Numbered from the stretch's first letter, positions 15,745-47,728 are shown. The stretch: 48,211 nt of DNA from Alphaproteobacteria bacterium (GCA_038133505.1 JAYPTI010000006.1:1-48211); one strand, 5' to 3'. The notes: generated by a model from the sequence alone, not told the origin. Translations and numbers: made by a program.

Positions 15745-15823
15745 GATTTTATCCCGACCGTTCTGGCAGACTAGCTGCCGCATTCGGCGCGGAAAGCCAA
15801 TCGGATGTCGACACGGTCCAGGT

Positions 15824-29865: not shown

Positions 29866-29940
29866 CGGGTTTTCCAATCGCAAAGGACCGCCGCCCGGAC
29901 CGGTGCCGGGCGGGGCGGCCGTCGGGCGCAGCTTTGGCGC

Positions 29941-30324
29941 CTACTTGGTCTCGTCGTAGTAGTGGCTCTCGAGCAGCAGGCAGCCGGTCTCGGACTTGAA
30001 CGGGCCGTGCGGCGTTCCCGGCGGGCGGCAGGCATAGGTGTCCGGGCCGAAGCTGCGCCCGCCGTTGCCGTTCTCGTCGTTGCCGACGATCAGGTCGCCG
30101 CGAAGCTGATAGACTTCTTCCCAGTAATCGTGCGTGAAGGGCGCGGTCGTGTAGACGCCCGGCTCGAACTTCAGGAGACGCGTCCGGCAGCCCGATTTGT
30201 TGGTCTCGTCGAGCCCGCCGACGAGGATCTTCTGCTTGATGCCTTCCGGATACCCTTCCGGCACTTCCCATTCGCCGCCCATGTCGACGGCGAAGAATTC
30301 CTTGTGTTGCTTGTTGATCGGCAT
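29941..30324 (-). CDS. ChrR-like cupin domain protein
   Basis: HDYWEEVY..G and RPPGTPHGPF cupin motifs. Confidence 0.85.
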   Translation of the reverse strand: MPINKQHKEFFAVDMGGEWEVPEGYPEGIKQKILVGGLDETNKSGCRTRLLKFEPGVYTTAPFTHDYWEEVYQLRGDLIVGNDENGNGGRSFGPDTYACRPPGTPHGPFKSETGCLLLESHYYDETK

Positions 30325-31048: not shown

Positions 31049-31189
31049 GCCCTGTCCCCTGTTTTTGAAGGCCGTCAACCTAGCGCCGCCCCCGATGCGA
31101 GGCAATAACCAGGCGCGGGCGGGACTGCCCATTCGGCGCATATCTGATAATGTCTCCCGGCTGCCGCAAGAGCAGTGATGGGGAAGAAG

Positions 31190-32461: not shown

Positions 32462-33728
32462 TGCCGCGACGACGCCGGAACCGCCTGCGGCGAAGACGAT
32501 CCCCGTCCTGCTGCTGACGGTCCTGCTGCCGTTCGGGCTCGGCTATTACATGTCGTACCTATTCCGGACAGTGAATGCTATCATCTCGCCGCAACTGGTC
32601 ACCGATGTCGGTCTCACCGCGGCTGATCTCGGCATGATGACCAGCGCATACTTCGTCACCTTTGCGGCCGTCCAGCTGCCGCTCGGCATCATCCTCGACC
32701 GGTACGGCCCGCGGAAGGTCCAGGCGGCCCTGATGATCGTGGCGGCGATCGGCGCCGCAATGTTCGCCTTCGGGACCGACGCATGGACCCTGGTCGCCGG
32801 GCGCGCCGTCGTCGGTCTAGGCGTCTCGGCCTGCCTGATGGCGGCTCTCAAGGCCAACGTCATGTGGTTCCCGCGCGAGCGGATCCCGTTTCTCAACGGC
32901 CTGATCTTCGCGTTCGGCACGTTCGGCGCACTGTCGACGACGGTGCCGCTGGAGCTGCTCGTGAAGTCCGTCGACTGGCGCACCGTCTTCTGGTGGCTTG
33001 CCGCGATATCCGTCGTGGTCGGCGTTCTGATCTATTTCGTCGTGCCGGAGCGCTCGCAGGAGCAGAAGCAGGCCGTCGCCGGGCAGTCCGCCTTCGCGAG
33101 CCAGGTCGAGGATTTAAAACAGGTCTACGGCAGCACGTTTTTCTGGCGCCTCGCGGCAATGGTGATCGTCCATAACGGCGTCTTCCTGTCCTACCAGTCC
33201 CTGTGGGCCGCGCCGTGGCTAAGGGACGTCGCCGGGCTCGACCGGTCGGGCGTCGCCGATGCGATGTTCATGTTCAACATCGGCATGTTCCTCGGCGTGC
33301 TGTCTCTCGGCTTTCTCGCCGAACGCATCCAGCGGCTCGGCATTCCGCCCATCGTCCCGGCGGGCGCCGGGATCGCGATGTCGATCCTCGTCCAGTGTCT
33401 GTTCGTCGCGCAGTGGACCGACTTCCCCGGATTGCTTTGCCTGCTCTTCGGCTATTTCGGTTCGTCCTCGGTCCTCGCCTACGCCGTCCTCGCGCAGAAT
33501 TTTCCCGCGTCGCTCGCCGGACGGGTGAATACCGCCCAGAACATGCTGACCTTCATTGCCGCCTTTACGACCCAGTGGGCGGTCGGCGTGATCATCGGCG
33601 CCTATCCGTCGCCGGGCGGCGGCCTCTACAGCGCCGAAGGGCACCAGGTTGCCCACGCCGTGTTCGTTGCGATCGAGATATGCGGTTTCGCGTGGTTCAT
33701 CTGGCCGCGCCGGAAGAAAGCGGCATGA
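32454..33728 (+). CDS. MFS transporter (tandem paralog)
   Basis: GIILDRYGPRK motif A; clearly similar to the preceding MFS. Confidence 0.9.
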   Translation: MADAATTPEPPAAKTIPVLLLTVLLPFGLGYYMSYLFRTVNAIISPQLVTDVGLTAADLGMMTSAYFVTFAAVQLPLGIILDRYGPRKVQAALMIVAAIGAAMFAFGTDAWTLVAGRAVVGLGVSACLMAALKANVMWFPRERIPFLNGLIFAFGTFGALSTTVPLELLVKSVDWRTVFWWLAAISVVVGVLIYFVVPERSQEQKQAVAGQSAFASQVEDLKQVYGSTFFWRLAAMVIVHNGVFLSYQSLWAAPWLRDVAGLDRSGVADAMFMFNIGMFLGVLSLGFLAERIQRLGIPPIVPAGAGIAMSILVQCLFVAQWTDFPGLLCLLFGYFGSSSVLAYAVLAQNFPASLAGRVNTAQNMLTFIAAFTTQWAVGVIIGAYPSPGGGLYSAEGHQVAHAVFVAIEICGFAWFIWPRRKKAA

Positions 33729-34159
33729 GCCCGCGCGAATATCCCGACCGGCCGATCTGCGGCGTCGGCGTGGTGTGCTTCAAGGATGACCTCGTGTTGC
33801 TGATCAAGCGGGGCAAGCCGCCGATCACCTGGGAATGGTCGATCCCCGGCGGCGGCCAGGAGATCGGCGAGACGACGCGCGAGGCGGCGCTCCGCGAACT
33901 GAAGGAGGAGACCGGCGTGGAGGCGCGGCTGCTGGGTCTCATCGATGTGATCGATACCGTCCGCGAAGACTCCGACGGCAAGGTGCAGTTCCACTACACG
34001 CTGATCGATTTCGCTGCCGAATGGACAGCTGGCGAGCCCGTCGCGGGCGACGACGCCGCCGACGCCAAATGGGTGCCGATTTCGGAAATAGAGGACCGCG
34101 GCCTCTGGACCGAGACGGTCCGCGTGATCCGCGAGGCCGAGAACCTGCGGGAGCGTTGA
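33725..34159 (+). CDS. NUDIX hydrolase
   Basis: Full Nudix box GGQEIGETTREAALRELKEETGV; ATGA overlap with the MFS stop. Confidence 0.93.
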   Translation: MSPREYPDRPICGVGVVCFKDDLVLLIKRGKPPITWEWSIPGGGQEIGETTREAALRELKEETGVEARLLGLIDVIDTVREDSDGKVQFHYTLIDFAAEWTAGEPVAGDDAADAKWVPISEIEDRGLWTETVRVIREAENLRER

Positions 34160-35533
34160 ATGGCGAAGGACCTGCGGAGCTTCTTCGACAAGAACGACGG
34201 GCTCATCCTGCGGGTTCCGAAAACGGTTCGGCGGGAAGACCTGAGCGTCCTGATCACCCAGGCGAACCGGCCGGTCCTGTTCGAAAAGATCGACGGTTAT
34301 GACGGCTGGTCCGTCGCCGACCTGCTGTTTCGCGACCGCATCGCACAGGCGGCGGTGCTGGAAACCGATCCCGGGAGAGTGACCGAAGTTCTGGCCGAGC
34401 GCCTCGCGCTTCCCCCGCGCGCGCCGTCGCGCGTCGGGACCGCGCCGTGGAAAGAGAATATCCACAAGGCGGGGGCCTTCGACCTGCGCCGAATACCAGG
34501 GTTCCGTCACGGGACCCGCGATCCGTGCGAGGTGCTGATCGTCATGAACGTGTGTCGCGCGCCCGACGGGGGGGCGGCCAACCTGTCCTTCACGCGCCTG
34601 TCGCCGTTCGAGGAACGCCGCGCGACGATGCTGATCGGCTCGTCGCCGCACCAGCGCGCGATCCTCGAGGCATGGAAGGCGCGCGGCGAGCCGATGCCGA
34701 TGGCCTGCGTCGTCGGCACGCATCCCGCCTACGAGATCATGGCGAGCTACAGCGTGCCGGACCACCTGGACCGGTTCGGCGAGCTCGACATCGTCGGCAA
34801 TTTGATCGGCGAGACGGTCGAGACGGTGGCGTGCGAGACCGTTCCGCTGGAAGTGCCGGCGCATGCCGAGCTCGTGATCGAGGGCTACGTCCACGGCGAC
34901 GAGTTGCGCGAGGACGGACCCGGCCCGTCGCAGGCGCTTTACTACCTTCCGGGCGCGACGCAGCAGCCCGTGTTCGAGGCGACGATGCTCGCCCACCGAA
35001 CCGGCCCCATCCTGCGGCAGCACAACACGTTGCTCTATTCGGATCATCAGCCGCTGATCTCGCTGCCGCACGAGGCGCTTCTGCTGGAGCGCCTTCGCGC
35101 CGAGACGGCGGACGTGCGCGACGTCTATTACGTGCCGTGGGGCGGGACGCTGGCCTGCGTCGTACAGGTCTCGCCGCGGGCCGACGGGGAAGTACGGAAC
35201 CTGCTGATGCTCGTACTCGGCCAGCGCTGGCCGAGCTGCAAGCTCGCGATCGCGGTCGACGAAGACGTCGATATCGGCACGGCGGAGGATCTGGTGTGGT
35301 CGCTCGCGACACGGGTCGACCCGACGCGCGACCTGTTCGTCGTCCCCGACGCCAAGACCCATCCCATCGACCCGACCGCGCGCCAGACCGGCGATCATCC
35401 GCGCGACGTCGTCACCGGCAAATGGGGGATCGATGCGACGAAGCCGTCGCTCCAGCACCCCGAGGCGCGCGCGCGTTTCGAGCGCACGGTTCCGCCCGGT
35501 TTCGGCGAGGTGTCGCTGGCGGATTACCTGTGA
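34160..35533 (+). CDS. UbiD family protein, divergent active site
   Basis: DLRSF, VLFEKI, NLSFTR, AELVIEG, KLAIAVDEDVDI, ATRVDP, IDP, KWGIDATKP. DGPGPS replaces EGPFGE. Confidence 0.88.
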   Translation: MAKDLRSFFDKNDGLILRVPKTVRREDLSVLITQANRPVLFEKIDGYDGWSVADLLFRDRIAQAAVLETDPGRVTEVLAERLALPPRAPSRVGTAPWKENIHKAGAFDLRRIPGFRHGTRDPCEVLIVMNVCRAPDGGAANLSFTRLSPFEERRATMLIGSSPHQRAILEAWKARGEPMPMACVVGTHPAYEIMASYSVPDHLDRFGELDIVGNLIGETVETVACETVPLEVPAHAELVIEGYVHGDELREDGPGPSQALYYLPGATQQPVFEATMLAHRTGPILRQHNTLLYSDHQPLISLPHEALLLERLRAETADVRDVYYVPWGGTLACVVQVSPRADGEVRNLLMLVLGQRWPSCKLAIAVDEDVDIGTAEDLVWSLATRVDPTRDLFVVPDAKTHPIDPTARQTGDHPRDVVTGKWGIDATKPSLQHPEARARFERTVPPGFGEVSLADYL

Positions 35534-36516
35534 GCGCGACGATGCGCGCGATCGTCGTCCGGCAGGCGGGCGGCCCTGAGGTTCTGCAGATCGAGGAAGA
35601 CTGGCCGCGGCCCGAGCCGCATACGGGACGTGTCCTGATCCGGGTCATGGCGTTCGGCCTCAACCGCGGCGAACTCTATACGCGGCTGGGCCACTCGCCG
35701 ACCGTCTCGTTTCCCCGAGTCCTCGGCATCGAGTGCGCCGGTATGGTCGAGGACGGAGGAGGGACTGCCTTCCGGAAAGGCCAGACGGTCGTCGCCACGA
35801 CGGGCGGCATGGGACGCGCCTACGACGGCAGCTACGCCGAGTTCGTCTCGGTTCCGGCCGGAAGCGTGCACGCGGTCGAGACGTCGCTCGACTGGGTGCA
35901 ACTCGCTGCCGTGCCCGAGCTGTTCCACACCGCATGGGGCGCGCTCGAACTCGCGCTCGGCATCGAGGCCGGCCAGACCCTGCTGATTCGGGGCGGCTCG
36001 TCCGCCGTCGGGCTCGTTGCAGCCGATCTCGCGCGCGTCAAACGTCTGACCGTTCTTTCGAGCACGCGCGATCCCGCGAAGGCGGACAGGCTGCGGGACT
36101 TCGGCGCGGATCGCGTCGTCGTCGGCGGCGACGAGATCGCGCCCGCGGTGCGGGCCGTCGTGCCGGACGGCGTCGACGCGATGTTCGATCTCGTCGGGAC
36201 CAGCGTCATCGACGACAGCTTCGCCTGCATCCGGACCGGCGGTACGCTCTGCATGGCGGGGCTGCTGGGCGGCGAGTGGGTGATCGACGGCTTCGCGCCC
36301 GGCGCGACGATCCCGTCGACCACGAAGTTCACTTATTTCTCCAGCTCTTCCACGCCGATGCGGACCGATGCACTGCAGGCCTATCTCGACGGACTCGAGG
36401 CCGGGTGCTACCGGCTGCCGCTCGAACGCGTGTTCGGGTTCGACGAGATCGGCGATGCCCACGCGCTGATGGAGTCCAATACCGCGGCCGGCAAGATCGT
36501 GGTCCGGGTGACGTGA
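35530..36516 (+). CDS. MDR-family NAD(P)H:quinone oxidoreductase-like protein
   Basis: GGPEVL, FGLNRGE, PRVLGIECAG, GSYAEF, GKIVV; no catalytic-Zn GHE motif. Start GTG 35530 or ATG 35542. Confidence 0.88.
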   Translation: MSATMRAIVVRQAGGPEVLQIEEDWPRPEPHTGRVLIRVMAFGLNRGELYTRLGHSPTVSFPRVLGIECAGMVEDGGGTAFRKGQTVVATTGGMGRAYDGSYAEFVSVPAGSVHAVETSLDWVQLAAVPELFHTAWGALELALGIEAGQTLLIRGGSSAVGLVAADLARVKRLTVLSSTRDPAKADRLRDFGADRVVVGGDEIAPAVRAVVPDGVDAMFDLVGTSVIDDSFACIRTGGTLCMAGLLGGEWVIDGFAPGATIPSTTKFTYFSSSSTPMRTDALQAYLDGLEAGCYRLPLERVFGFDEIGDAHALMESNTAAGKIVVRVT

Positions 36517-37724
36517 GGCATCCGGTCTTTCTCGTCGCGTCGTTCTGTACGGCGCTGGTCCTGTCGCTGCTGGGGTTCATGGCGCCGGCGGCCGTCCTCG
36601 ACGACATCATCCGCGACTGGTCGCTGACGAACACTCAGGCGGGATGGTTGGGCGGCGCGCTGTTTGCCGGCTACATCGCTACCGTGCCGATCCTGACCGC
36701 CTACACGGACCGGATCGATCCGAAGCGGATCTATCTCGTCTGCGCGGCGATCGGCACGCTCGGCAATTTCGGCTTCGGGTTCGTCGCCGACGGGCTGTGG
36801 TCGGGCTTCGCGTTCCGGGTGTTGACCGGCGTCGGGCTGGCGGGGACCTATATGCCCGGCCTGAAGGCGCTAACCGATCAGCTTGCGGCTGGAACCGTTC
36901 AGCAGCGCGGCGCGACCTACTATACGTCGGTCTTTGCGCTCGGCTCGGGGCTGTCGATCCTCGTGGGCGGAATCGCGGGCGATATGGCCGACTGGCACTG
37001 GGCGTTCGCGGTCGCCGGCGTCGGCTCGTTCGGCGCGCTCGCGATCGTTGCGCTGGTCCTGCCCGCCAATCCGCCGGCGCCCCGGGGCGAGAAAGCTGCG
37101 TCGGCACTCAATTTCCGGCCCGTTCTCCGGGACAGGAACGTGATGGGCTACGTCTGTTCGTTCCTCGGAATCGCGTGGGAGGTCTTCGCCAGCCGTATCT
37201 GGCTGGTCAGCCTGTTCGTTTTTCTTCAGGCGGCCCTGCCGGAAGCCGAGCGCGGCTGGAGCCCGGCCGTGTGGGCGACCGTCGTCGCGTTCGTCGGCGT
37301 GCCTGCCGCGATGGGCCTCGGCGAGCTTGCCGTCCGATACGATCGGCGACGGCTCCTGATCGCCGTGTCTGCGGCGTCGGCCCTTCTTGCGATGGCAGCC
37401 GGCCTGACGCTGGGCGTTTCCTACGAGCTGACGCTCGTCCTCTGCCTTCTTTTCGGTATGACGTCCTACGGCCGGAACGCGGCCACGACCGCCGGGACGA
37501 TCGCCGTTGCGAATCCCGCGCGGCGCGGCGCGACGCTGGCGGTGCAGGCGTTCATCGGGTTTTCCGGCGGGATTTTGGGGCCGCTTGCCTTCGGCGTGGC
37601 GCTGGACGGGGCAGGGGGCGCGACGGAGGCGGGAGCCTGGGGAGCGGCGCTGTGCGTGATGGCGGCCGGCCCCGTTCTGTCCCTGATCTCCCTGCTTCTC
37701 CTGCCGCAGTCGCGGAGAAACTGA
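36513..37724 (+). CDS. MFS transporter
   Basis: About 12 TM segments, TDRIDPKR, GLAGTYMPGLK; GTGA overlap with the upstream stop. Confidence 0.88.
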   Translation: MRHPVFLVASFCTALVLSLLGFMAPAAVLDDIIRDWSLTNTQAGWLGGALFAGYIATVPILTAYTDRIDPKRIYLVCAAIGTLGNFGFGFVADGLWSGFAFRVLTGVGLAGTYMPGLKALTDQLAAGTVQQRGATYYTSVFALGSGLSILVGGIAGDMADWHWAFAVAGVGSFGALAIVALVLPANPPAPRGEKAASALNFRPVLRDRNVMGYVCSFLGIAWEVFASRIWLVSLFVFLQAALPEAERGWSPAVWATVVAFVGVPAAMGLGELAVRYDRRRLLIAVSAASALLAMAAGLTLGVSYELTLVLCLLFGMTSYGRNAATTAGTIAVANPARRGATLAVQAFIGFSGGILGPLAFGVALDGAGGATEAGAWGAALCVMAAGPVLSLISLLLLPQSRRN

Positions 37725-37727
37725 AAG

Positions 37728-37736
37728 TTATCCACA
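37728..37736 (+). promoter_or_regulatory. perfect DnaA box
   Basis: TTATCCACA, intergenic. Confidence 0.55.
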
Positions 37737-37790
37737 GGCGGCGCGATCGGCTCGAATTTTTTTCAAAGTTTTTTCGAATTTGGCCTGCAT

Positions 37791-37805
37791 TTAACGCTTC
37801 ATTAA
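37791..37805. promoter_or_regulatory. full CtrA binding site TTAA-N7-TTAA
   Basis: TTAAcgcttcaTTAA, 57 nt upstream of ATG 37863. Confidence 0.65.
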
Positions 37806-37862
37806 GCAGCCCGGCGATCCAATGGCACATGACGAATAAACGTGCCACAAGGGAGAACCGGC

Positions 37863-38561
37863 ATGAGCGATCTTGGAAATCTGCAGAAACGCGTGGGCAG
37901 CGCGGTCGACCGGCTCATCGAGAGCCAGGAAGCGCGCCAGCGTAATAACCTGTCGTTAGGCCGGATCCTTAACGATCTGGAAATCAAGTTCGAAGCCCGC
38001 AAGATCGAACTCGATCACTGCCACGCGCGCATCGCGCAGCTCGAGGAGTCGAACCGTTCGCTGACCGATCTGGTCGGCCGAATGGTCGAAATCGTCGAGA
38101 AGACGGCGGACGAATTTTCCGAGGATCCCGTTTTCCGCACCACGGCCGTCGCCGGAGAGATCATCGATCGTTTCGTGCCGAAGATCGTCGCCGACAACTC
38201 GCCCGTTGCCGAGGAGACGCCGAAGGAGATCCCCGCAATGGGGGAGCATGAAGCCTTCTCCGGCGCGCACGGCACCTTTCAGAACGTCGGGGAAGACCTC
38301 CTGATCGCAGAGCTGATCGACGAAAAGACGACGGGATCGAACGATTACCCGCAGCTGGTATTCGATGCCGCCGCGCTCGCGCGCGAGGGCGATGCGCCGG
38401 CCCCTGCCGAGCCGAAAGCGCAGGAGCCGGAAGATCTCGGCATCAAGGAAATCATGGCCCGTCTGGAAATCGCGGCCGAGCGTGCGCAGCTCGGTTCTGC
38501 CGCGACGGGGGAGGACGACGAAACGGTCGAGAAAGATCGGGCAGTCGGGGGACGCGCCTGA
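37863..38561 (+). CDS. hypothetical coiled-coil/acidic protein
   Basis: GGGAG SD; 232 aa; N-terminal heptad repeats followed by an acidic Pro/Ala-rich region. Confidence 0.78.
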   Translation: MSDLGNLQKRVGSAVDRLIESQEARQRNNLSLGRILNDLEIKFEARKIELDHCHARIAQLEESNRSLTDLVGRMVEIVEKTADEFSEDPVFRTTAVAGEIIDRFVPKIVADNSPVAEETPKEIPAMGEHEAFSGAHGTFQNVGEDLLIAELIDEKTTGSNDYPQLVFDAAALAREGDAPAPAEPKAQEPEDLGIKEIMARLEIAAERAQLGSAATGEDDETVEKDRAVGGRA

Positions 38562-38601
38562 TCGGCTTAGTAGCGTCCGCGTAGCACCCCTGTAGCGTAT
38601 C

Positions 38602-38626
38602 GGGGCGAAACTCCCGGGTTCGCCCC
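38602..38626. terminator. hairpin between convergent genes
   Basis: GGGGCGAA/TTCGCCCC 8-bp stem. Confidence 0.45.
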
Positions 38627-38634
38627 AAGTTTAT

Positions 38635-39747
38635 TCAAAAGATATCCGACCGTTCGTACTGCACCGGCCAGGCAAAGTTTTCCGCGCGCAGTTTCGATGC
38701 CGCGTGCACCGGCCAGTAGGGATCGGCCAGCAGGGTCCGGCCGAGCACGACGAGATCGGCCCGCCCGTTCGCGACCACTTCCTCGCAAAAATCCGGGCTG
38801 TGCAGGAGCCCGACGGCGGATGTCGCTATTTCCGCGTCGCGGCGGATGCGCTCGGCAAACGGGACCTGGTATCCCGGATGGATCGGGATCTGCTGGCGCG
38901 GGTCGTTGCCGCCCGAAGAGCAGTCGATCAGGTCTACCTTGCCCGACGCCTTCAGCATCCGGGCGACCGCCACGGTGTCGTCGACGGTCAGTCCGCCCTC
39001 GACCCAGTCCGTGCACGACAGCCGCACGAAGAGCGGCAGGTCGTCTGGCCATTCGCTGCGGATCGCGTCGATCGTCTCCATCAGCATTCGGGCCCGGTTC
39101 TCCAGCGTGCCGCCGTAGGCGTCGGTGCGGACGTTGCTCAGCGGCGACAGGTAGCTGTGCGCGAGATATCCGTGCGCGGCGTGGAGCTCGATCAGCCTGA
39201 AACCGGCCTCGCGGCCGCGCCGTGCCGCGTCCGCGAACTGCTGCAGGACGCGGGCGATGGCATCGCCGTTCATCTCCTCGGGCGTCTGGAAGTCGGCATA
39301 GGGCAGGGCGGACGGTCCGATCACCTGCCAGCCGTCCGGCTCGTCGGCCATGATCGGGCCGGCGCCGTCCCACGGCCGCCGCGTCGACGACTTTCGCCCG
39401 GCGTGCCCGATCTGAAGCGCCGGCACGGCGCCCCTGTCCGCGACGAAGGTGACGATCCGCTTGAACGCGTCGCGCTGGTCGTCGTTCCAGATGCCGAGGC
39501 AGTTCGGCGTGATCCGTCCTTCGGGCGCGACATGGGTCGCCTCGGTGAAGACGATGCCCGCGCCGCCGACGGCGCGGCTTGCGAGATGCACGTAATGCCA
39601 TTCCTCCGGCATCCCGTCGGTTGCCGAGTACTGGCACATCGGCGACAGCATTATCCGGTTGGACGCTTTGACGGACCGGAACTCGATCGGCCGGAAGAGG
39701 TGCGGGTTGCGGTCGCGCTGGAGGATGCGTCGTTTGTTCTCGCTCAT
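38635..39747 (-). CDS. NADH:flavin oxidoreductase, old yellow enzyme (YqjM/NamA type)
   Basis: SPMCQYS, ELHAAHGYL, SPLSNVRTDAYGG, PGYQVPFAE. Confidence 0.93.
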   Translation of the reverse strand: MSENKRRILQRDRNPHLFRPIEFRSVKASNRIMLSPMCQYSATDGMPEEWHYVHLASRAVGGAGIVFTEATHVAPEGRITPNCLGIWNDDQRDAFKRIVTFVADRGAVPALQIGHAGRKSSTRRPWDGAGPIMADEPDGWQVIGPSALPYADFQTPEEMNGDAIARVLQQFADAARRGREAGFRLIELHAAHGYLAHSYLSPLSNVRTDAYGGTLENRARMLMETIDAIRSEWPDDLPLFVRLSCTDWVEGGLTVDDTVAVARMLKASGKVDLIDCSSGGNDPRQQIPIHPGYQVPFAERIRRDAEIATSAVGLLHSPDFCEEVVANGRADLVVLGRTLLADPYWPVHAASKLRAENFAWPVQYERSDIF

Positions 39748-39752
39748 TGCGC

Positions 39753-40085
39753 TCAGAATACCTTTTCGGAAACGAAGGCCTGGTGGGTCACGTCGCCGTC
39801 GAACCGCGGAAAATTGCCGAAGTCGTCGCGCGCCTCGGCCCGGGCAGGCGATGCGAGCGCTGCGTTCAGCGACGGCAGGTCGTTGAAGCGCATCTCGGCG
39901 ATCAGGAGGTTTCCTCCCGGATTGACGGGAAACGGATCGGCGAAGTCGGCGCCGCGATAGAGGACGAGCGAGCGGATACCGGGAAAACGCTGGAGGATCG
40001 GCGCGTGGCTCGACCGGTAATGGGCGAGAAACGCCTCCGGGTCGGGCGCGGCGCCGTGATAGCGGACGATATAGGAGGCGGTCAT
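39753..40085 (-). CDS. EthD family protein
   Basis: [25 protein letters not shown]; dimeric alpha/beta barrel pattern. Confidence 0.8.
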
Positions 40086-40996
40086 GCGGCGGTTCCTTTT
40101 TCTGCAGTGATGTTTTCCAGCTCTTCGAGCGTGCGCGGCCAGTCCGACTTCAGCAGTCTGGAGAGAGAGCGGTCGGCCAGCAGTTTGCCGCCCGTCTGGC
40201 AGGCGGCGCAGTAGTTCGTCTCGTTGTCGGCATAGCGGATGCGCTGGATCGGTGCGCCGCAGTCGGGGCAGGGCTCCTTGTGGCGTCCGTGTACGGCCAT
40301 GCCCTTGCGGAAGGCCGTGACCTTTTCAGGGAAGCCGCCGCCGGCGTCAACGCGCAGACGTTCGGTCCAGTCGGCGAGGGTTTCCCGGGTCGCAAGGAAC
40401 AAGCGCCCGGTCTCTTCGTCCGTCATCTTTTGCGTCTGCACGATGGGCGACATCCGGGCCCGGTGCAGTATTTCGTCCGAATAGGCGTTGCCGATGCCGG
40501 AGAAGATGCGCGGGTCGGTCAGCGCCCGCTTGATGGTGTGGTTACGCGCCGCGAGTGCTTCGCGGAACGTCTCCGCGCTGCAGGCCATTATGTCGATGCC
40601 GCCCGGATCGAGCGCCGCAAGTCCGCTCTCGCCGGATACGACATGAAGCGCTGCGCGTTTCTTGCTGCCCGCTTCCGTCAGCGTCAGAGAGCCGTCTGCG
40701 AAGTCGAACGCCGCGAGATCCGTCTTGGCCCCGATCTTCGCGCGGGGCTCCTTCCAGTGAAGCCGGCCCGCGATCATCAGATGGATGACGAGCCAGACGT
40801 CGTTGTCGAAACCGATCGCGATCCGCTTTCCGATCCGGCGGAGGCTGGAGACGCGATGTCCGATCGCCTCCGACGGGCGCGGGCTGACCGTGCGCATCAG
40901 GAACGGGCTTAGGATGCGGGCGTTCTCCAGCGTCGCGTCGGCGATCCTGGCGTCGAGCGCTTCGATGTAGACGGTGACGTCGGGCAATTCGGGCAT
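40082..40996 (-). CDS. Fpg/Nei family DNA glycosylase
   Basis: MPELPDV N-terminus, RIGKR, HLMIAG, H2TH motif [11 protein letters not shown], Zn finger CPDC..CAAC. Confidence 0.92.
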
Positions 40997-41122
40997 GGCG
41001 CCAAGCGTGTTTGATTGTCCGCGCGCTGGCAAGGCTTTCCTGTGTCGGAGAGCGTTCCAATTCGCGCGTCCACCCTCTACGCTGCCCGGGAAAAAGCGAA
41101 CGAACCGGGGAGACTTCCGACC

Positions 41123-41833
41123 ATGATTTTCGAACGTCGCGCCTACACCGCGGAACCCGGCAAGGTGCCGGATTTCTATGCCGCCAACGTCGAGCGGGGA
41201 TTCGATCTGGTCGACCCGATGATGCAGCGCCTCGTCGGCTATTTCACGACGCGGACCGGGCCGGTCGACCAGGTCGTGCATTTCTACCGCTACGACGATC
41301 TCGATGACTGGAATAGCAAGCTGCGCGGCATGTACGGCGTGCCCGAACTGACGCCGTACTTCACCAAGGCGCGAAAGATTCTCTACAAACAGGAGAACGC
41401 GTTCTTCGATCTCTTGCCCGTCGAGGCGCTCAACCCGATGTGGGCGGGCGAAAACGACTGGCTCCCGCGGGATGGCGGCAAGCTTGCGCCGCTCGACGAC
41501 GACATCGTGATCGAGGAGCGGTCGTTCCAGCTGCGTCCCGGCGGCATTCCGGCTTTCGTCGAGGCCTGCAATGTGCACGGCGCGGCAGCCCTCGCACCGC
41601 TTGCCGACCGCTTGATCGGCAGTTTCGTCGCCGCCACCGGCCCGCAGCACCTGATCCGCTTCTGGTGGTGGTTCGGCTCGGAAGAAGAGCGCGTCGCCAG
41701 CCTGTCTCCGGTGTTCGGATCGCGGAGCTGGTCGGCCTTCATCGATGCCATCGCGCCGCTGGTTCAGGAGCAGACGTCGCTCCTGCTGCAGCCGAGCCCG
41801 GTACCGGAGATGTCGCCGCTGTTCGGTTCGTAG
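41123..41833 (+). CDS. tandem NIPSNAP domain protein
   Basis: Two repeats (IFERRAY..PGK and VIEERSF..PGG), each with an LVG/LIG.F...TGP segment. Confidence 0.82.
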
Positions 41834-41840
41834 GTCGGCG

Positions 41841-42467
41841 TCAGCCGTCGGATTTACGGCGCCGGATAGTTCCCAGCCCGATCAGGCCGAGACCGAATAT
41901 CAGGGCCGTCGCCGGCGCGGGAACGGCCGCGGAGGCTGCGACGACGATATTGTCGATCGAACGGTTCTCGTCTGCCGACGATGTGCCGTCGGACTGAAAC
42001 AGCAACGAGACGAGGGAGGTAAATCCCGCCGCGTTGAAGGTCTGGAAACCGGATATCCCGTCGACCAGGAAGGTCGTCGTGATCTGGGTGGTGTCGGCGC
42101 GCGTTCCGGTAATCCGGAAATTGTTGGTGCCGGGGAATGACGCTAGGCTGAAGGGCTCGCCGACGTCGAACTAGAACAGGTCGAATTCGCCGCCGCCGAT
42201 CCTTGTCATCAGGATGCCGTGGTCGTCGAAACCGACGCTTGGAAATACGCTGGTATCTCCGGTCGTCGCTCCTGCGAGGAAGGTGGTCGGACGCACGGAA
42301 CCGAACGACGTGGCGCTGAATTCGTATCCGCTTTCCACGTAAGGCTGAGCATCGCTCGCCAGGGCTTCGAAATTGATCGTGACGGCGGACGCCGCCGAAG
42401 ACATGCCGATCAAGAAAGCCGGCGTACCGGCGGCGCGCAGCAAAGTGCCGAATAGCCCGAATTTCAT
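41841..42467 (-). pseudogene. PEP-CTERM-like (VPAPA) exported protein interrupted by an in-frame TAG at 42171-42173
   Basis: Signal peptide ..SSAASA/VTINFE. The same frame continues past the TAG for 109 codons to [27 protein letters not shown]-stop. Confidence 0.82.
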
Positions 42468-42622
42468 TTTTTGCTTTTCACAGGTGAGTGTGGACGGACC
42501 GGAATTTATGCTGAAAAAAGATCGGACATCAACTCGATAGAGGCCGTTTCGCCGGCGCTCGGTTCCGAGGCCAACAAAGTCGGACCGCTTGGATTTGTTG
42601 ACACGAGGCCGCGGCGCCCGCA

Positions 42623-42646
42623 TAATTGTATGTGTACAAACAATTA
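42623..42646. promoter_or_regulatory. palindromic operator upstream of the Rieske oxygenase
   Basis: TAATTGTATGT-GT-ACAAACAATTA, arms match at 10/11 positions. Confidence 0.6.
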
Positions 42647-42672
42647 AGCGTCCATAGCCTGGGAGACGCGTC

Positions 42673-43710
42673 ATGAGTTTCGTTCGAAATGCCTGGTACG
42701 TCGCCTGCTGGGCGCATGACCTGACGGACCGGCCGGTACCGCAGACCGTGCTCGGCGAGAACATCGTTCTGTGGCGCGGCGCGGACGGAAAGGCGCGCGC
42801 GGCGGAGGATCTCTGCCCGCATCGGTTCCTGCCGCTGTCGCTGGGCCGGGTGAAGGGCGACGACCTGCAGTGCGGCTATCACGGGCTGGTCTTCGACGGC
42901 GAGGGCGGATGCGTCGGCGCGCCGACGCAGACGATGCCGCCGGCCGAGTGCCGCATCCGCAGCTACCCGGTGCACGAGAACATGGGGATGATCTGGATCT
43001 GGACCGGCGATCCGGCGCTCGCCGATCCCGCCGATGTCTATGACCTGCCCGAATATCACATGCCCGGCTGGGGCGTCGCATTCGGCGACGCGCTCGACGT
43101 CGAGGCGAACTACCTGCTGCTGTGCGACAATCTCTGCGACCCGACGCATGTGAACTACGTGCACCCGTCGACGCTCGGCAACCCGGACGAGATCAACGCG
43201 CCCGTGTCATTCGAGGACACGTCCTGGGGTGTCCTGACCGAGCGACTGACCCCCGACTCGAAGCCGACCGGTTTCGTTAGCGCGTTCGGCAGACATGAGG
43301 GCCGCGTCGACATGTGGCAGCGCTACCTGATGTACACGCCGTCGGTCTCAATCATCGACTTCGGTGCGGTCGCCGCCGGGACCGGCACGCACGAGGAAGG
43401 CGGCGAGGGGCGTATCCAGGTGTTCTCGTGCCACTTCATGACGCCCATCACCCAGACGCGCACCATCGACCGCTGGCTGCACGTCCGCAACTTCCAGCCG
43501 GACGACCCGTTCGCCGGCGAGAGGATCAGCGAACAGTTCCGCATCGCCTTCGCCGAGGACAAGGAAATCCTCCAGGCGGTTCAGGCCGAGGAGGACCGCC
43601 ACGCCGGCCGCCGCAAGGTCGGCCTCGACCTCGACGCGTCGGCCGGGCTTTTCCGGCACAAGGTGAACCGGCTCCTTCGCACCGAGGCGCAGGCGCAGGC
43701 GGCGGAGTAG
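42673..43710 (+). CDS. Rieske non-heme iron oxygenase alpha subunit (VanA-like demethylase family)
   Basis: RNAWYV, CPH..CGYH Rieske ligands, NLCDPTHVNYVH, FAED. Confidence 0.93.
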   Translation: MSFVRNAWYVACWAHDLTDRPVPQTVLGENIVLWRGADGKARAAEDLCPHRFLPLSLGRVKGDDLQCGYHGLVFDGEGGCVGAPTQTMPPAECRIRSYPVHENMGMIWIWTGDPALADPADVYDLPEYHMPGWGVAFGDALDVEANYLLLCDNLCDPTHVNYVHPSTLGNPDEINAPVSFEDTSWGVLTERLTPDSKPTGFVSAFGRHEGRVDMWQRYLMYTPSVSIIDFGAVAAGTGTHEEGGEGRIQVFSCHFMTPITQTRTIDRWLHVRNFQPDDPFAGERISEQFRIAFAEDKEILQAVQAEEDRHAGRRKVGLDLDASAGLFRHKVNRLLRTEAQAQAAE

Positions 43711-43731
43711 GCGCTAACCTACCGCGCAGGT

Positions 43732-43806
43732 TGTCATCCTTGGGCTTGAGCCGAGGATCCATTTTAGTCGCGTATATGGACCCTCGGCTCAAGGCCGAGG
43801 GTGACA
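43732..43806. repeat. alphaproteobacterial REP/RIME-like palindromic element
   Basis: TGTCATCCTTGGGCTTGAGCCGAGGATCCAT ... ATGGACCCTCGGCTCAAGGCCGAGGGTGACA: two inverted, internally palindromic units. Confidence 0.75.
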
Positions 43807-43837
43807 TTGAAGCTATAGTCCCGGCAGGCCTGTCTGC

Positions 43838-43877
43838 TTGACTCGCGCATATATATAGATAATCTAGTTATCTATAT
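43838..43877 (+). promoter_or_regulatory. sigma70-like promoter overlapped by a perfect palindromic operator
   Basis: TTGACT (43838) N16 TAATCT (43860); ATATAGATAA-tctag-TTATCTATAT at 43853-43877. Confidence 0.7.
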
Positions 43878-43899
43878 TGCGGCAAACGAGAGGCTCGCC

Positions 43900-45315
43900 A
43901 TGGATGCCGACGGAACGTTCCCATCGCCTTCAACCGGCCATAACCGGCCGCTCGACCGCGATCTTCGCGGCTATCTCGAAACCAATTCCGATATCCTGAC
44001 GGTGATCCAAAAGCCGGTGTCGATCGACGACATCGGGGCGCTGTCGGCGCAGTCGGAAGGTCCGATCCTGTTCGAGAACATCGTCGAGCATCCCGGTTTC
44101 CGGATCTGCGACATCCTCGTGAAGCACCGCTGGTCGCAGTGCCGCGCGCTCGGCGTGCCGCAGGAGGAATACCTGCCGACGCTTGCGCATCGGCTGCGCA
44201 AGCCGCCGCGCGGCCTGGTCGACGTGGCGACCGGACCCGTGAAGGAAGTGAAGTTCATCGGCGACGACGTCGACTGGACCAAGCTACCGGCCCCGATCCA
44301 TTCGGCGGAGGAGGGCAATCCCTACATCTCGGCGATGAACATCGTGAAGGATCCGGAAACCGGCTTCTACAATTCGTCGCACGCCGGCACGACGCCGACC
44401 GGCCCGCGCGAGGGCGTCGTCAGTTTCGCGACGCCGCACACTCACATCATCATGAACAAGTACCGCGAGCGCGGCATCATGGAGATGCCGATCGCCATCG
44501 TGTTCGGCGTCCACCCCGCCTACGAGATCATGGCCAACTTCTCCGGCATGCACATGGACATGTGGGGCGAGATGGAGATGGTCGGCACGATCATGGACCA
44601 GGACATCGAGATGGTGCCCTGCGAGACCGTCGACCTGACGGTGCCCGCTCACGCCGAGATCGTCGTCGAAGGCCTGATCGACCTGTCGCGGACGCACCAT
44701 GTCGGCGGCGTCAACGCGCCGACGGGCTACTTCCTGCCGAAGGAGCAGGACATCCCGTCGATCAAGGTCACCGCGATCACGATGCGCAAGGACAAGCCGA
44801 TCTACCGGAACCACCAGACGGTGCCCGACACGGATCACCAGCCGCTGCCGCGCTTGTGCCACGAGGCGATCCTCTACAACCGGATCAGCGAGATCGGCCT
44901 GAAGGTGCACGACGTCCGCTTCCCGCCGTGGGGCGCGGCGGTGAGCTGCATCATCCAGGTCGAATACCCGCGGCCGGGCTTCGTCAACGATGCGCTGATG
45001 CAGACGATGGGCTCGCCCTGGCTCAACACCAAGATGGTCGTGGCGGTCAGCCCCGATACCGACATCGACGATCCCGGCGCCGTCTATCGCGCGATGGCGA
45101 CGCGCGTCGATCCGGCGCGCGACATCTTCGTCGTCCCGGGCACGCGCGGCTCGCTCTACGAGCCGTCCGGCGAGCCGATCCCCGGCAACGCGCCGTGGCG
45201 CACTGTCGGCAAGATCGGCATCGACGCCACCGCCAAGCCGCATCGCGGCGAAACCGATTTTCAGGAGGCCTTCCCCCTCAACTGGGGCAAGGCGAAGCTG
45301 GAGGATTATCTCTGA
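43900..45315 (+). CDS. UbiD family protein, highly divergent active site
   Basis: DLRGYL, PILFENI, LPAPIHS.EEG.PYI, KDPETG.YN, AEIVVEG, ATRVDP, KIGIDAT. Lacks the Arg and the EGPFGE motif. Confidence 0.88.
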   Translation: MDADGTFPSPSTGHNRPLDRDLRGYLETNSDILTVIQKPVSIDDIGALSAQSEGPILFENIVEHPGFRICDILVKHRWSQCRALGVPQEEYLPTLAHRLRKPPRGLVDVATGPVKEVKFIGDDVDWTKLPAPIHSAEEGNPYISAMNIVKDPETGFYNSSHAGTTPTGPREGVVSFATPHTHIIMNKYRERGIMEMPIAIVFGVHPAYEIMANFSGMHMDMWGEMEMVGTIMDQDIEMVPCETVDLTVPAHAEIVVEGLIDLSRTHHVGGVNAPTGYFLPKEQDIPSIKVTAITMRKDKPIYRNHQTVPDTDHQPLPRLCHEAILYNRISEIGLKVHDVRFPPWGAAVSCIIQVEYPRPGFVNDALMQTMGSPWLNTKMVVAVSPDTDIDDPGAVYRAMATRVDPARDIFVVPGTRGSLYEPSGEPIPGNAPWRTVGKIGIDATAKPHRGETDFQEAFPLNWGKAKLEDYL

Positions 45316-45914
45316 TGGCCGAGGAAAAGCCGTTCATTCCCTATGCCGACCGCGATGCGCTGCCCGACGGGCTGAAGGCGCCGCTCGAAGCCTACGAGCA
45401 GCGCATGGGTTTCATGCCGAACGCGCTCAAGCTCTACATGCACCGGCCGGAGCTGCTGGCGTGCCTCGTCCAGCTCAACAACACGGCGATGCGCGACCCG
45501 TCGAGCCATCTCGACGCCGGGCTCAAGCGGCGGATCTCGGCGATCTGCAGCTACCTGAATAAGAGCGCCTATTGCGTCGCGCACAACACCAACACGCTGA
45601 TGACCGACGCGGGCGGAGACGGGGAGGGCTGGGACTTTTCCGACGAGGACGTCATGAAACTGCTCGATCCGGCCTACAGCGCGGATGCCCCGGCGGAGAA
45701 GGCGGCGATCGACTATGCGCGTGCCGCGACTGTCGATCATTCGAACGTGCCGCGGTCGGTGCTCGACCGGCTCTCGGAGACGATGACGCCGCCGCAGGTG
45801 GTCGAACTCGCCTGTGTCGTCGGGTTCTGGAAGATGTACAACTCGATCCACGAGGCGCTGCACGTACCCATCGAGGAGGCGCTGCAGGGCAACGTGGCCT
45901 TTCTCGACGCATGA
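45315..45914 (+). CDS. AhpD/carboxymuconolactone decarboxylase family protein
   Basis: MGFMPN, HRPELL, CSYLNKSAYCVAH, QVVEL..VVGF; TGATG coupling to the UbiD stop. Confidence 0.82.
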   Translation: MAEEKPFIPYADRDALPDGLKAPLEAYEQRMGFMPNALKLYMHRPELLACLVQLNNTAMRDPSSHLDAGLKRRISAICSYLNKSAYCVAHNTNTLMTDAGGDGEGWDFSDEDVMKLLDPAYSADAPAEKAAIDYARAATVDHSNVPRSVLDRLSETMTPPQVVELACVVGFWKMYNSIHEALHVPIEEALQGNVAFLDA

Positions 45915-46450
45915 GCGGCGGCAGACCGCCCCCCACCGTCTCGCGCCCGGCGCTTCTGGACGACGGAAAGACGGACCGCGCCTTTCGCCGCATGGTCTAC
46001 GACCTGATGACGGTCGGCGCCCGCATGCAGGAGGTGCGCGACCGGCTCGCTGCGGAGATGGGGGTGAGCGGGCCGCAATACGCCATCCTGATGGCGATCG
46101 CGCACCTGCAGGACGAGGACGGCGGCGCGGGCGTTCGCGCCGTTGCGCGGCGGCTGCATGTCAGCGGGCCCTTCGTCACGGCCCAGGTCAACCGCCTGGT
46201 CGACGCTGGGCTGGTCGAAAAGGCCCCGAACCCTGACGACGGCCGCGGTGTCCTGCTTGCGATAGGTGCGGCCGGCCGTGCCGTCATCGACCGAACGGCG
46301 CCGTCGATCCGGGCGGCGAACGACACGTTCTTCGGGAATCTCGATGCCCGCGATTTCGACAACCTGTGCCGTCTTGCCGCCGATCTCGTCGAGAGTTCGG
46401 AAGAGGCGCTCGAAACGTTCGACGACGGAGAGGCGCAAGCGGCGCAATAA
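45911..46450 (+). CDS. MarR family transcriptional regulator
   Basis: GVSGPQYAIL, helix-turn-helix, LVDAGLV..PDDGRGVLL wing. Confidence 0.9.
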   Translation: MSGGRPPPTVSRPALLDDGKTDRAFRRMVYDLMTVGARMQEVRDRLAAEMGVSGPQYAILMAIAHLQDEDGGAGVRAVARRLHVSGPFVTAQVNRLVDAGLVEKAPNPDDGRGVLLAIGAAGRAVIDRTAPSIRAANDTFFGNLDARDFDNLCRLAADLVESSEEALETFDDGEAQAAQ

Positions 46451-46480: not shown

Positions 46481-47728
46481 GTGCCATCTACGGAAGACAT
46501 TCCTGCCGGATCGCCCTCTTTGACCGTCTCCGCCGAACCGCAATCCAAATCAGAGTCGCATTGGCCGCTGGTCATCTGCCTTGGCGTCATCGCCGGGCTG
46601 GCGCCTCTGTCGATCGACATGTACCTGCCGAGCTTTCCGTCGATCCGCGCGGAGTTCGGCGCGTCGGCGGCCCAGATCCAGCTCACCCTGTCGGGCTACA
46701 TGCTCGGTTTCACGCTCGGCCAGCTTTTCTACGGGCCGATTTCCGACCGGTTCGGAAGGCGGCCGGTCCTGCTGACGGGGATCGTCCTCTACGTCGTCAT
46801 GTCGGCGATGTGCGCGCTCTCGAGCGACGCCGAGATGCTGACCGTCTTCCGGTTCTTCCAGGCGATCGGCGGCGGAGCCGGCACCGTGCTTTCGCGCGCC
46901 ATCATTCGCGACCGCTACGCCGGACCCGTCATGGCGAAGGTGATGTCGCTGATGCTGACCATCATCCTGTTCGCGCCGATGATCGCGCCCGTGGTCGGCG
47001 GCTATCTGCTGGTCCTGCTGGGCTGGCGGTCGATCTTCTGGACGCTGACCGGCTGCGGCATCGTCGCGATTTGCGTGATCGTCTTCGCACTGAAGGAAAC
47101 GCTGCCGCCGGACCGGCGGAGCACCGGCGGCGTGAAGCCGCTTCTGCGCGGCTACTTGACCGTCATTCGTCACCCGGGCGCATTGGGATACATCCTGTCC
47201 GGGGGCATCACGTTCGGCGCGCTGTTCGCTTACCTGTCCGGCGCGCCCTTCGTGTTCATCGAGTTCTACGGCGTCGCGCCCGAGCACATGGGCTACATCT
47301 TCACGCTCAACGTGGTCGGCGTGATGATCGGCGGCTGGCTGAACAGCCGGCTCGTGGTGACCATGGGCGTCCGCGAGATGATGACCATCGGCACATGGCT
47401 GCTGTTCGCGGGCGCGTGCATCCTGTTCGGCGTGATCGCGCTCGATATCGGGGGAATGTGGGGCGCGATCGCCAGTATCGTCGTCTTTACCCTGCCGTTG
47501 AACACCATCAATGCGAACGCCGCGGCCGGAACGCTCGAATATTTCCCCGATCTCGCGGGCACGGCCTCCGCGGTGGTCGGCGCGTTCCGCTACGGCTGCG
47601 GCGCGGTTGCCGGCCTCGTCGTCGGCCTTCTGCACGACGGTACCGCCATGCCGATGGCGTGGGTCATTCTCGGCTGCTCCACGATCAGCGTGATCTTTCT
47701 GATGACGATGGTGCGCGGGCGCGCTTGA
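46481..47728 (+). CDS. Bcr/CflA family MFS efflux transporter
   Basis: PLSIDMYLPSFP, GQLFYGPISDRFGRRP, RAIIRD, AGTASA. Start uncertain. Confidence 0.92.
   Translation: MPSTEDIPAGSPSLTVSAEPQSKSESHWPLVICLGVIAGLAPLSIDMYLPSFPSIRAEFGASAAQIQLTLSGYMLGFTLGQLFYGPISDRFGRRPVLLTGIVLYVVMSAMCALSSDAEMLTVFRFFQAIGGGAGTVLSRAIIRDRYAGPVMAKVMSLMLTIILFAPMIAPVVGGYLLVLLGWRSIFWTLTGCGIVAICVIVFALKETLPPDRRSTGGVKPLLRGYLTVIRHPGALGYILSGGITFGALFAYLSGAPFVFIEFYGVAPEHMGYIFTLNVVGVMIGGWLNSRLVVTMGVREMMTIGTWLLFAGACILFGVIALDIGGMWGAIASIVVFTLPLNTINANAAAGTLEYFPDLAGTASAVVGAFRYGCGAVAGLVVGLLHDGTAMPMAWVILGCSTISVIFLMTMVRGRA

Follow-up and report, generated by a model that had tools for sequence, protein, structure and literature searches.

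UbiD-family proteins with a broken catalytic network in a marine alphaproteobacterial gene island, one of them paired with an AhpD-like protein

What does a UbiD-family protein do when its cofactor site is kept and its catalytic acid is gone? The question is raised by a contig of an Alphaproteobacteria bacterium (GCA_038133505.1 JAYPTI010000006.1:1-48211), analysed here over its whole length of 48,211 nucleotides, hereafter the window. Two genes on its plus strand encode UbiD-like proteins, designated A (P0001, 34160..35533, 457 aa) and B (P0002, 43900..45315, 471 aa). A third UbiD gene (P0003, 25856..27301, plus strand), with the motifs NYGVYR and EEGPFGEF, served as the canonical comparison copy. 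It was found that A and B belong to a monophyletic and conserved clade under selection, in which the cofactor ligands are intact and the catalytic network is broken, and which is accompanied by a fixed gene set of catabolic type with a MarR regulator. The window has a GC content of about 65% and comes from an assembly of 3.18 Mb in 240 contigs, 86% complete. Its nearest public records are metagenome-assembled genomes (MAGs) of marine or estuarine Alphaproteobacteria, and the sequencing runs matching positions 42673-46450 are DNA runs from estuary and marine metagenomes, with no RNA run listed.

By sequence, A and B are full-length members of the UbiD family whose nearest relative is HmfF. Both passed the Pfam models UbiD (PF01977) and UbiD_C (PF20696), as P0003 did, with 133.4 and 94.5 bits for A and 130.0 and 78.5 bits for B (cut-offs 23.3 and 24.2). 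On the NCBIfam model TIGR00148, “UbiD family decarboxylase”, A (196.8 bits) and B (161.3 bits) remained below the cut-off of 244.85 bits, which P0003 passed with 260.6. The two proteins share 35% identity. The closest solved structure to both is HmfF of Pelotomaculum thermopropionicum (6h6v), which aligned end to end with A (E 1.2e-44) and B (E 5.9e-41) at about 28% identity. Residues 14-457 of A align to residues 16-447 of HmfF, the fold of A being judged in this way only. For B, an AlphaFold2 model was built from a 60-sequence alignment (predicted local distance difference test, pLDDT, 84.9; predicted template modelling score, pTM, 0.85), and its Foldseek comparison with 6h6v gave TM scores of 0.78 and 0.82.

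In Fdc1 of Aspergillus niger, R173, E277 and E282 are the catalytic residues, and N168, H191, E233 and K391 bind the cofactor. The corresponding positions were located by aligning B by hand to the solved Fdc 7nf0, whose chain index equals the A. niger number plus 17 by hand count, and were then carried into an alignment of 230 sequences from which fragments shorter than 430 aa had been removed (13 of the 120 hits of A, none of the 120 hits of B). This alignment comprised 82 A-type sequences, 121 B-type sequences (the best 120 hits and B itself) and 26 relatives with canonical motifs (group O; RNxxxxR and EGPFGEF). A further group close to B in the tree described below, group C, was counted separately on 36 sequences, 7 of its 43 open reading frames (ORFs) being partial and left out. 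The cofactor residues N168, H191, E233 and K391 correspond to N141, H164, E208 and K361 in A and to N158, H180, E224 and K378 in B. The catalytic R173, E277 and E282 correspond to R146, D252 and S257 in A, and to G163, V268 and A273 in B. The triad positions thus read D252-R146-S257 in A and V268-G163-A273 in B, and the Glu-Arg-Glu network is broken in both. The motifs themselves stand in ...GAANLSFTRLS... and the acid-loop stretch ...REDGPGPSQALYY... of A, and in ...FYNSSHAGTT... and the acid-loop stretch ...HHVGGVNAPTGYF... of B.

An earlier note on this DNA had reported the coordinates and motifs of A, B and the canonical copy together with the loss of the catalytic Glu, and the ORF sequences and the mapping of E282 to S257 and A273 agree with it on both counts. 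It had further proposed that the prFMN (prenylated flavin mononucleotide) and metal ligands are kept. This holds for the Asn, the His, the Lys and a Glu, but the Glu of the IEG/VEG motifs that it had pointed to is not E233; the true equivalent sits 44 residues before E277, in FGELD of A and WGEME of B.

The pattern extends to the homologues. No acid was found at the E282 position in any sequence of groups A (0/82), B (0/121) or C (0/36): A-type proteins have Ser throughout (82/82), B-type proteins Ser (57), Ala (36), Gly (27) or Thr (1), group C always Gly (36/36) and group O always Glu (26/26). At the R173 column Arg is found in every A-type and group O sequence (82/82 and 26/26), and B-type sequences have Gly (112), Ala (6) or Arg (2) among 121. 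The E277 column holds Asp (61) or Glu (21) in A, Val, Phe, Tyr or Ile in B, and Glu in all 26 of group O. Among the cofactor positions, N168 is kept in 82/82 A, 120/121 B, 36/36 C and 26/26 O, and E233 in every sequence of the four groups (82, 121, 36 and 26). K391 is Lys in 70 A-type sequences and Arg in the other 12, and Lys in 121/121 B, 36/36 C and 26/26 O. At H191, His is present in 73/82 A and 120/121 B, and Thr in 34/36 C. The loop GPGPSQALYY of A is more than 90% conserved across its group, and the matching loop of B varies. B-type proteins carry additional residues of potential relevance: His161 (115/121), on the same strand and two residues before the lost Arg, a near-invariant Cys320 and an invariant His321.

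The genome of the window encodes 30 UbiD-family ORFs, 28 of which cover the acid-loop column, and only A and B have no acid at E282. Because these are only two of 28 paralogues, and none of the homologues examined departs from this state, the pattern is not due to chance. The richness in UbiD genes is shared by relatives: of 20 genomes from its family or order, 17 have 21-36 matches to PF01977 and the other three have 9 each. A third odd paralogue lies outside the window (G000:C72:975-2585, minus strand). In this protein Asp replaces N168, and the acid loop has YETAESEEAG in place of its GPFG core, with an insertion after it; the acids at both positions seem to be retained.

At least 81 relatives of A were found, with 45-99% identity. 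The B family is much larger: 8000 candidates were scored and 3042 hits obtained, of which the top 120 were all at least 67% identical to B. A FastTree phylogeny (LG+gamma), rooted on the canonical copy, was built from 151 sequences, namely 126 cluster representatives of an exhaustive search together with references. In this tree, A and B fell in one 19-leaf clade with a Shimodaira-Hasegawa-like (SH-like) support of 0.999. All 18 leaves aligned at the E282 column were without acid, the remaining one (P0091) being gapped there, and support for the E282-less clade was 0.999-1.00. Inside the clade, A is sister to a branch uniting P0244 and P0250 with B. The P0250 type is group C, whose 43 ORFs came from a metagenome scan and which shows the states N, R, D, G, H, H and the loop DGP[SN]PGPTML. 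The proposal of a distinct UbiD subfamily, made in the earlier note, is supported by this single clade without E282 throughout, for which NCBIfam holds no equivalog model. Groups A and C keep Arg173 and Asp/Glu at 277. The simplest history is that E282 was lost once, giving Ser, Gly or Ala, and that R173 and E277 were later lost in B alone. Branches next to the clade also vary, with E282 changed to Asn together with K391 to Gln, Glu changed to Asp, and fully degenerate forms. The Asn/Gln-type relatives form a branch of their own (P0252, P0257, P0263).

The ratio of non-synonymous to synonymous substitution rates (dN/dS) against orthologues was 0.045-0.20 for B, 0.18-0.28 for A and 0.09-0.16 for the AhpD-like gene that follows B. 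These values indicate purifying selection, so that the genes are not decaying. B-type proteins of Alpha-, Beta- and Gammaproteobacteria have a mean column identity of 75% (60 sequences). One B-type gene (locus L070, G356:C1:95495-96850) contains two in-frame TGA codons, the ORF found being of 282 aa; decay to a pseudogene, an error in sequencing or recoding could account for this. In public records the proteins of the clade have generic or HmfF-type names. Automatic JGI annotation calls many A- and B-type homologues “2,5-furandicarboxylate decarboxylase 1” and some of them “4-hydroxy-3-polyprenylbenzoate decarboxylase”. Since catalytic residues are missing, both of these names are probably wrong.

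Motifs shared by A and B had been put forward in the earlier note as a new signature. They are indeed absent from the canonical copy of the window, but they are not new. Group O, which is about 37% identical to both A and B and includes a paralogue from the same genome (G000:C35:18981-20570), has HPvYEIm, DHQpLitLPMEA and PpW, and HmfF of P. thermopropionicum has a C-terminal LADYL together with HPA and EH...REA. As HPAYEIM, DHQPL, the EA that follows and LxDYL occur in canonical relatives, they are to be seen as inherited HmfF-like features and not as replacements for the lost Glu. DHQPLP of B aligns to Fdc positions 323-327. The expectation that DHQPL lines the active site is upheld by this alignment, but its role would be substrate recognition: the His of the DH motif matches H296/297 of HmfF, and it is present in 82/82 A, 121/121 B, 36/36 C and 26/26 O. 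In HmfF this residue is described as key to the specificity for furan substrates and as the counterpart of the substrate-binding N318 of HudA (PMC7976604).

The second His of the xHEA motif (H304 in A, H321 in B) behaves differently. It was found in 81/82 A, 121/121 B and 36/36 C sequences and in 0/26 of group O, where the position is Met in 25 of 26; HmfF has Arg there (R304), which presumably binds the distal carboxylate of 2,5-furandicarboxylic acid (FDCA). As read from the alignments, only this second His is clade-specific and tracks the loss of E282. Of the suggested DH..HE acid/base or second metal site, this residue is accordingly what is left, the Asp, the first His and the Glu being present in canonical relatives as well.

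The gene neighbourhood of B was compared in a genome scan that gave 71 loci containing B, all of them in MAGs of Alpha-, Beta- and Gammaproteobacteria. Two of these (L073 and L074, with only 29% identity) were set aside and two further loci were added, which again makes 71 B loci besides the window itself (L001). Directly downstream of B, on the same strand, a gene for an AhpD-like protein was found in 61 of the 67 loci with enough flanking sequence (59 counted, plus L002 and L003, which are stored reversed). In the window this gene (45315..45908, plus strand) encodes a “peroxidase-related” protein of 197 aa; its start overlaps the stop of B by 1 nt (TGATG), with GGAGGA upstream. Y86, C87 and H90 of the protein, forming a Tyr-Cys-x-x-His motif, are invariant. 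The first Cys of a CxxC motif is present in most relatives and is Ser in the marine subclade of the window. Matches to known families were weak: 52.6 bits (E 4.6e-14) on TIGR01926, with a cut-off of 81.8, and, for a relative, 21.3 bits on PF02627, with a cut-off of 23. Its solved relatives, likewise weak matches, include 2pfx (E 4e-7) and the debrominase Bmp8 (6ohj, E 1.4e-4). A complex prediction for B with the AhpD-like protein returned a score of 0.00, which counts neither for nor against binding.

Other families recur at the 71 B loci, namely MarR, which follows on in 58, and further HpaB-type monooxygenase (24), EthD, DUF2848 and Cupin_7 (17 each), Old Yellow Enzyme (OYE, 14), VanA-like oxygenase (13), UbiX (7) and amidase (4). 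Where UbiX is present it lies directly upstream, through a DUF2390 gene. Uptake systems of the branched-chain ABC type also recur near B. The 43 loci of group C are similarly furnished, with EthD at most 1.5 kb downstream (13), Cupin_7 (13), DUF2848 (10), OYE (8), UbiX (5) and AhpD-like genes (5). The AhpD-like pairing and the shared degradation gene set are absent from the earlier note. B is mostly the sole UbiD gene of its locus. In 6 soil loci a UbiD copy carrying EEGPVSEF is found 7.5 kb upstream of B. In L039, from a gammaproteobacterial MAG, B is preceded by a UbiD-like gene with E282 changed to Asn and K391 to Gln (NEGPFGNY) and by a small Rieske ferredoxin, and a Trp-halogenase-like flavoprotein follows the AhpD-like gene; the stretch concerned comprises L039:8097-9611, 9611-9916 and 9959-11362.

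The window itself contains, between 28.5 and 47.7 kb, an island that holds the MarR, EthD, OYE, DUF2848, Cupin_7, amidase, VanA-like and AhpD-like families recurrent near B. It begins on the minus strand with an amidase-signature amidase of the PRK07056 type (28507..29883), a Cupin_7 protein (29941..30324) and a DUF2848 protein (30374..30994). The A operon follows on the plus strand: two genes for major facilitator superfamily (MFS) transporters at its head (31175-32461 and 32454-33728, together 31175..33728), a NUDIX hydrolase directly upstream of A (33725..34159), A, a medium-chain dehydrogenase of the quinone-oxidoreductase type (QOR, PIG3-like) directly downstream (35542..36516) and a third MFS transporter at the end (36513..37724). 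The genes for OYE, an Old Yellow Enzyme-family flavin oxidoreductase (38635..39747), and for an EthD-family protein (39759..40106) are on the minus strand. A VanA-like Rieske oxygenase (42673..43710), B, the AhpD-like gene, a MarR-family regulator (45911..46450) and another MFS transporter (46481..47728) complete the island, all on the plus strand. A and B are 8.4 kb apart, in different operons, and A has no AhpD-like neighbour.

The order MFS-MFS-NUDIX-A-QOR-MFS recurs in 9 of 13 marine contigs with an A orthologue. The NUDIX hydrolase was considered as a dedicated supplier of dimethylallyl phosphate (DMAP) for A and was rejected, as the NUDIX-QOR-MFS arrangement stays without A in L007, L010 and L062, and only generic MutT-like matches were obtained. 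Beside the A operon lies an ORF of 239 aa (37842-38561, plus strand) with a coding-like codon bias and no Pfam or NCBIfam match, which is conserved at 43-48% identity in the same place in L005, L056 and L084. A DNA glycosylase of the Fpg/Nei type (Fapy_DNA_glyco, H2TH and zinc-finger domains; 40082 to about 41000, minus strand) is arranged head-to-tail with EthD and OYE and overlaps the EthD start by about 25 nt; its presence beside catabolic genes is unexpected. Far from the island, a ManC-type GDP-mannose pyrophosphorylase/mannose-6-phosphate isomerase gene (14316-15783, minus strand) is split by a frameshift near 15143-15165 into ORFs 15163-15783 and 14316-15143; the N-terminal part ends in ...KYLAEG and a stop codon and continues in another frame. 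Either the assembly is wrong at this point or the gene is broken.

It is plausible that A and B bind prFMN made by UbiX, considering that the equivalents of the four cofactor and metal ligands are kept and that some loci include UbiX. In the window a UbiX flavin prenyltransferase is encoded at 20406..21017 (plus strand), 13 kb from A and 23 kb from B, and in the closest relatives the sole UbiX match is 13-18 kb from the island. A UbiX match was obtained in 36 of 37 genomes holding B, most having only one and 4 of the 37 having two.

We infer that A and B are working enzymes and not decaying copies. The reading that we prefer, and to which we give about an even chance, is that they are paralogues of an old and widespread HmfF-related branch of the UbiD family, acting as prFMN enzymes with relocated proton transfer in a catabolic pathway. 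This pathway would be a MarR-controlled breakdown of a (hetero)aromatic or phenolic carboxylate, and would also involve the AhpD-like protein, EthD, OYE, DUF2848 and Cupin_7, with HpaB, amidase and uptake transporters in some lineages. In such a mechanism the covalent adduct between flavin and substrate would still form, in the pocket inherited from HmfF, and the conserved His of the DH motif may recognise a ring heteroatom or hydroxyl of the substrate. The weakest step is the proton transfer of E282, which would have to be done elsewhere. Candidates are the clade-specific His of xHEA (His304/His321), in A and C the retained Asp of the remodelled loop (Asp252 in A), and in B His161 and Cys320 and/or the translationally coupled AhpD-like partner. 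Alternatively, the product might leave as a non-aromatic tautomer, which OYE and EthD would then reduce.

Several observations weigh against relocated proton transfer on prFMN. Fdc1 activity needs an acid at both 277 and 282, only the change of Glu to Asp being tolerated, and the R173A variant is severely impaired in cofactor maturation (PMC5818171). On this basis no decarboxylase activity would be expected from A, and still less from B, which should also be unable to mature prFMN without help. Since the acid loop varies among B-type proteins, it has probably lost its function there, and the low-confidence parts of the model of B are its active-site loops (216-220, about 270-280 and 313-316). 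The link between the clade His and the loss of E282 amounts to one phylogenetic event and not to repeated co-variation. Moreover, it has exceptions among the 151 aligned sequences: 17 combine a non-acid with the His and 121 an acid with another residue, but 8 non-acid sequences are without the His and 4 acid sequences carry it, the one sequence gapped at the E282 column having the His. UbiX was above cut-off in 9 of 14 control genomes, and being so common its presence is uninformative on its own. A can be missing from its own operon, the NUDIX gene then adjoining QOR in the three loci named above. Finally, the carriers are uncultured, all loci of the genome scan coming from MAGs. Given the contrary mutagenesis of Fdc1, a non-catalytic role and a different chemistry with a thiol partner remain serious rivals.

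The first of these would make A and/or B pseudoenzymes, serving as a cofactor store, a chaperone or maturation helper, a scaffold or a regulatory subunit for canonical UbiDs. Such a role seems to us rather improbable. It would fit the network being incomplete in A and absent in B, since Fdc1 variants of this kind are inactive (PMC5818171), and the 30 PF01977 matches here, with 21-36 in 17 of the 20 relatives, would imply a high demand for cofactor handling. Dedicated prFMN chaperones or maturases do exist, namely LpdD (PMC10865409) and PhdC (PMC13040415), and some loci pair B with another UbiD (the EEGPVSEF copy of the 6 soil loci, the Asn copy of L039). However, B is mostly alone in its locus as a UbiD and its fixed partner is the AhpD-like protein. 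Several genomes holding B gave few UbiD-like first-pass candidates (6-8 in G334, G339, G347 and G349) and thus offer few possible clients. All three groups have invariant pocket positions (the equivalent of HmfF H296, a Gln and the clade His), for which a pure cofactor carrier should have no use, and the conserved catabolic neighbours argue for a pathway step. A heteromer of B with a canonical UbiD was rejected, as a second UbiD is found in only a minority of B loci (the 6 soil loci and L039).

The rival with a thiol partner is a non-decarboxylative chemistry, in which B and the AhpD-like protein, and perhaps C with its own copy, form a two-protein redox, dehalogenating or isomerising system. 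The UbiD scaffold would hold either reduced prFMN or ordinary FMN, with thiol chemistry taking over from the Glu-Arg-Glu network. We regard this as unlikely. In its favour, the two genes are linked in 61 of 67 loci and overlap by 1 nt in the window; the partner has its invariant Tyr-Cys-x-x-His, and its solved relatives include the thiol-dependent debrominase Bmp8 as well as the peroxidase-related 2pfx; and the near-invariant Cys320 of B stands beside the invariant His321. Arg173, needed for oxidative maturation in Fdc1 (PMC5818171), is missing from B, so its cofactor might stay reduced. The reductases OYE and QOR are frequent neighbours, and in L039 the Trp-halogenase-like gene comes after the pair. 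That halogenase, however, is confined to a single locus, A has no AhpD-like neighbour, the first Cys of CxxC is Ser in the subclade of the window and the match to characterised AhpD-like proteins is weak (TIGR01926, 52.6 against 81.8 bits). A broader form of this idea, likewise only a tentative possibility, is that the whole E282-less clade has been re-purposed beyond acid-assisted decarboxylation. B and the AhpD-like protein would then constitute a two-protein system using prFMN or reduced prFMN, with a His/Cys set in place of the network. Its reaction might be a reductive, dehalogenating, tautomerising or dearomatising one, with a heteroaromatic or phenolic compound as the substrate and a product that OYE and EthD would then reduce. 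By far the least probable arrangement is one of those proposed in the earlier note, in which A and B make up a single hetero-oligomeric (de)carboxylase in the manner of the alpha and beta subunits of phenylphosphate carboxylase. They are paralogues at 35% identity, lie 8.4 kb apart in one island and are incomplete in different ways. Nevertheless, their operons are separate, and since no more than 4 of the 37 genomes holding B have an A orthologue (which lies near B in only 1 of the 71 other loci), a joint enzyme is unlikely. NUDIX and QOR adjoin each other without A in three relatives, and the PpcA/PpcB models are far from reaching their cut-offs.

To our knowledge, every mechanistically studied UbiD enzyme uses the Glu-Arg-Glu/Asp network. 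Here a large and strongly conserved natural clade does without the catalytic Glu, and its B group without any of the network, yet the cofactor site is kept. Either outcome would be informative, be it prFMN catalysis with another proton relay or partner, or a scaffold moved to a new function. The AhpD-like partner is fixed, the ligand of the MarR regulator should point to the substrate, and a set of enzymes (EthD, DUF2848, Cupin_7, OYE) recurs. Together these define a well-bounded, uncharacterised pathway, found in marine Alphaproteobacteria with 20-36 UbiD paralogues per genome and in soil Proteobacteria. Full-text searches, which do not cover supplements or most subscription journals, gave no paper on a UbiD branch without the network or on a UbiD-AhpD or UbiD-EthD pairing. 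Published family trees in supplements could include the clade, and the literature on DUF2848 gave nothing on the clade or the pairing. We know of no characterised member of the AhpD-like family that works with a UbiD protein. Two known pathways were considered and rejected. The 5-hydroxymethylfurfural (HMF)/furoate pathway (PMC8091172) has no hmfABCDE context here: no genes of this type are among the annotated neighbours in the window, in which no search was aimed at hmfA-E. The lumazine/pterin pathway, with its xanthine-8-carboxylate decarboxylase, came into question since an amidase-signature enzyme and a UbiD occur together in it (PMC12391406), but was dropped as no molybdenum dehydrogenase was seen among the neighbours.

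Compared with known systems, A and B are closest to HmfF of P. thermopropionicum (6h6v/6h6x) and Cupriavidus basilensis, with which they share L-x-DYL, HPA and the active-site His of the DH motif. HmfF, however, has the full N..R/EGPFGE network, whereas in A the second Glu is replaced by Ser and in B the Arg and both Glu are gone; it has Arg (REA) where the clade has His (HEA), and no hmfG/UbiX gene adjoins A or B in the window. With canonical UbiD, Fdc1, AroY and HudA they have in common the Pfam domains, the fold and the equivalents of the Mn/K-phosphate ligands N168, H191, E233 and K391, but the network that defines those enzymes is broken in both. PpcA and PpcB of phenylphosphate carboxylase are likewise divergent UbiD-like paralogues encoded near each other. 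The genes of A and B, in contrast, are neither adjacent nor co-occurring (4/37 genomes), no gamma or delta subunit genes were seen here, and the models TIGR02723 and TIGR02724 gave 69.7-88.5 bits on A and B against cut-offs of 564.6 and 468.95. A likeness to AhpD-like “peroxidase-related” proteins and Bmp8 concerns just the partner gene, with weak full-length matches and a conserved Cys-x-x-His, but the scores are below the family cut-off and the first Cys is missing in the subclade of the window. The coupling of a UbiD-family protein to a small partner other than UbiX is known from VdcCD, LpdBCD, with its chaperone LpdD, and PhdA-PhdC. The PhdC maturase is an HpaC-like flavin reductase (PMC13040415), unlike the partner of B, which is a 197-aa AhpD-like Cys/His protein of the carboxymuconolactone decarboxylase (CMD) fold.

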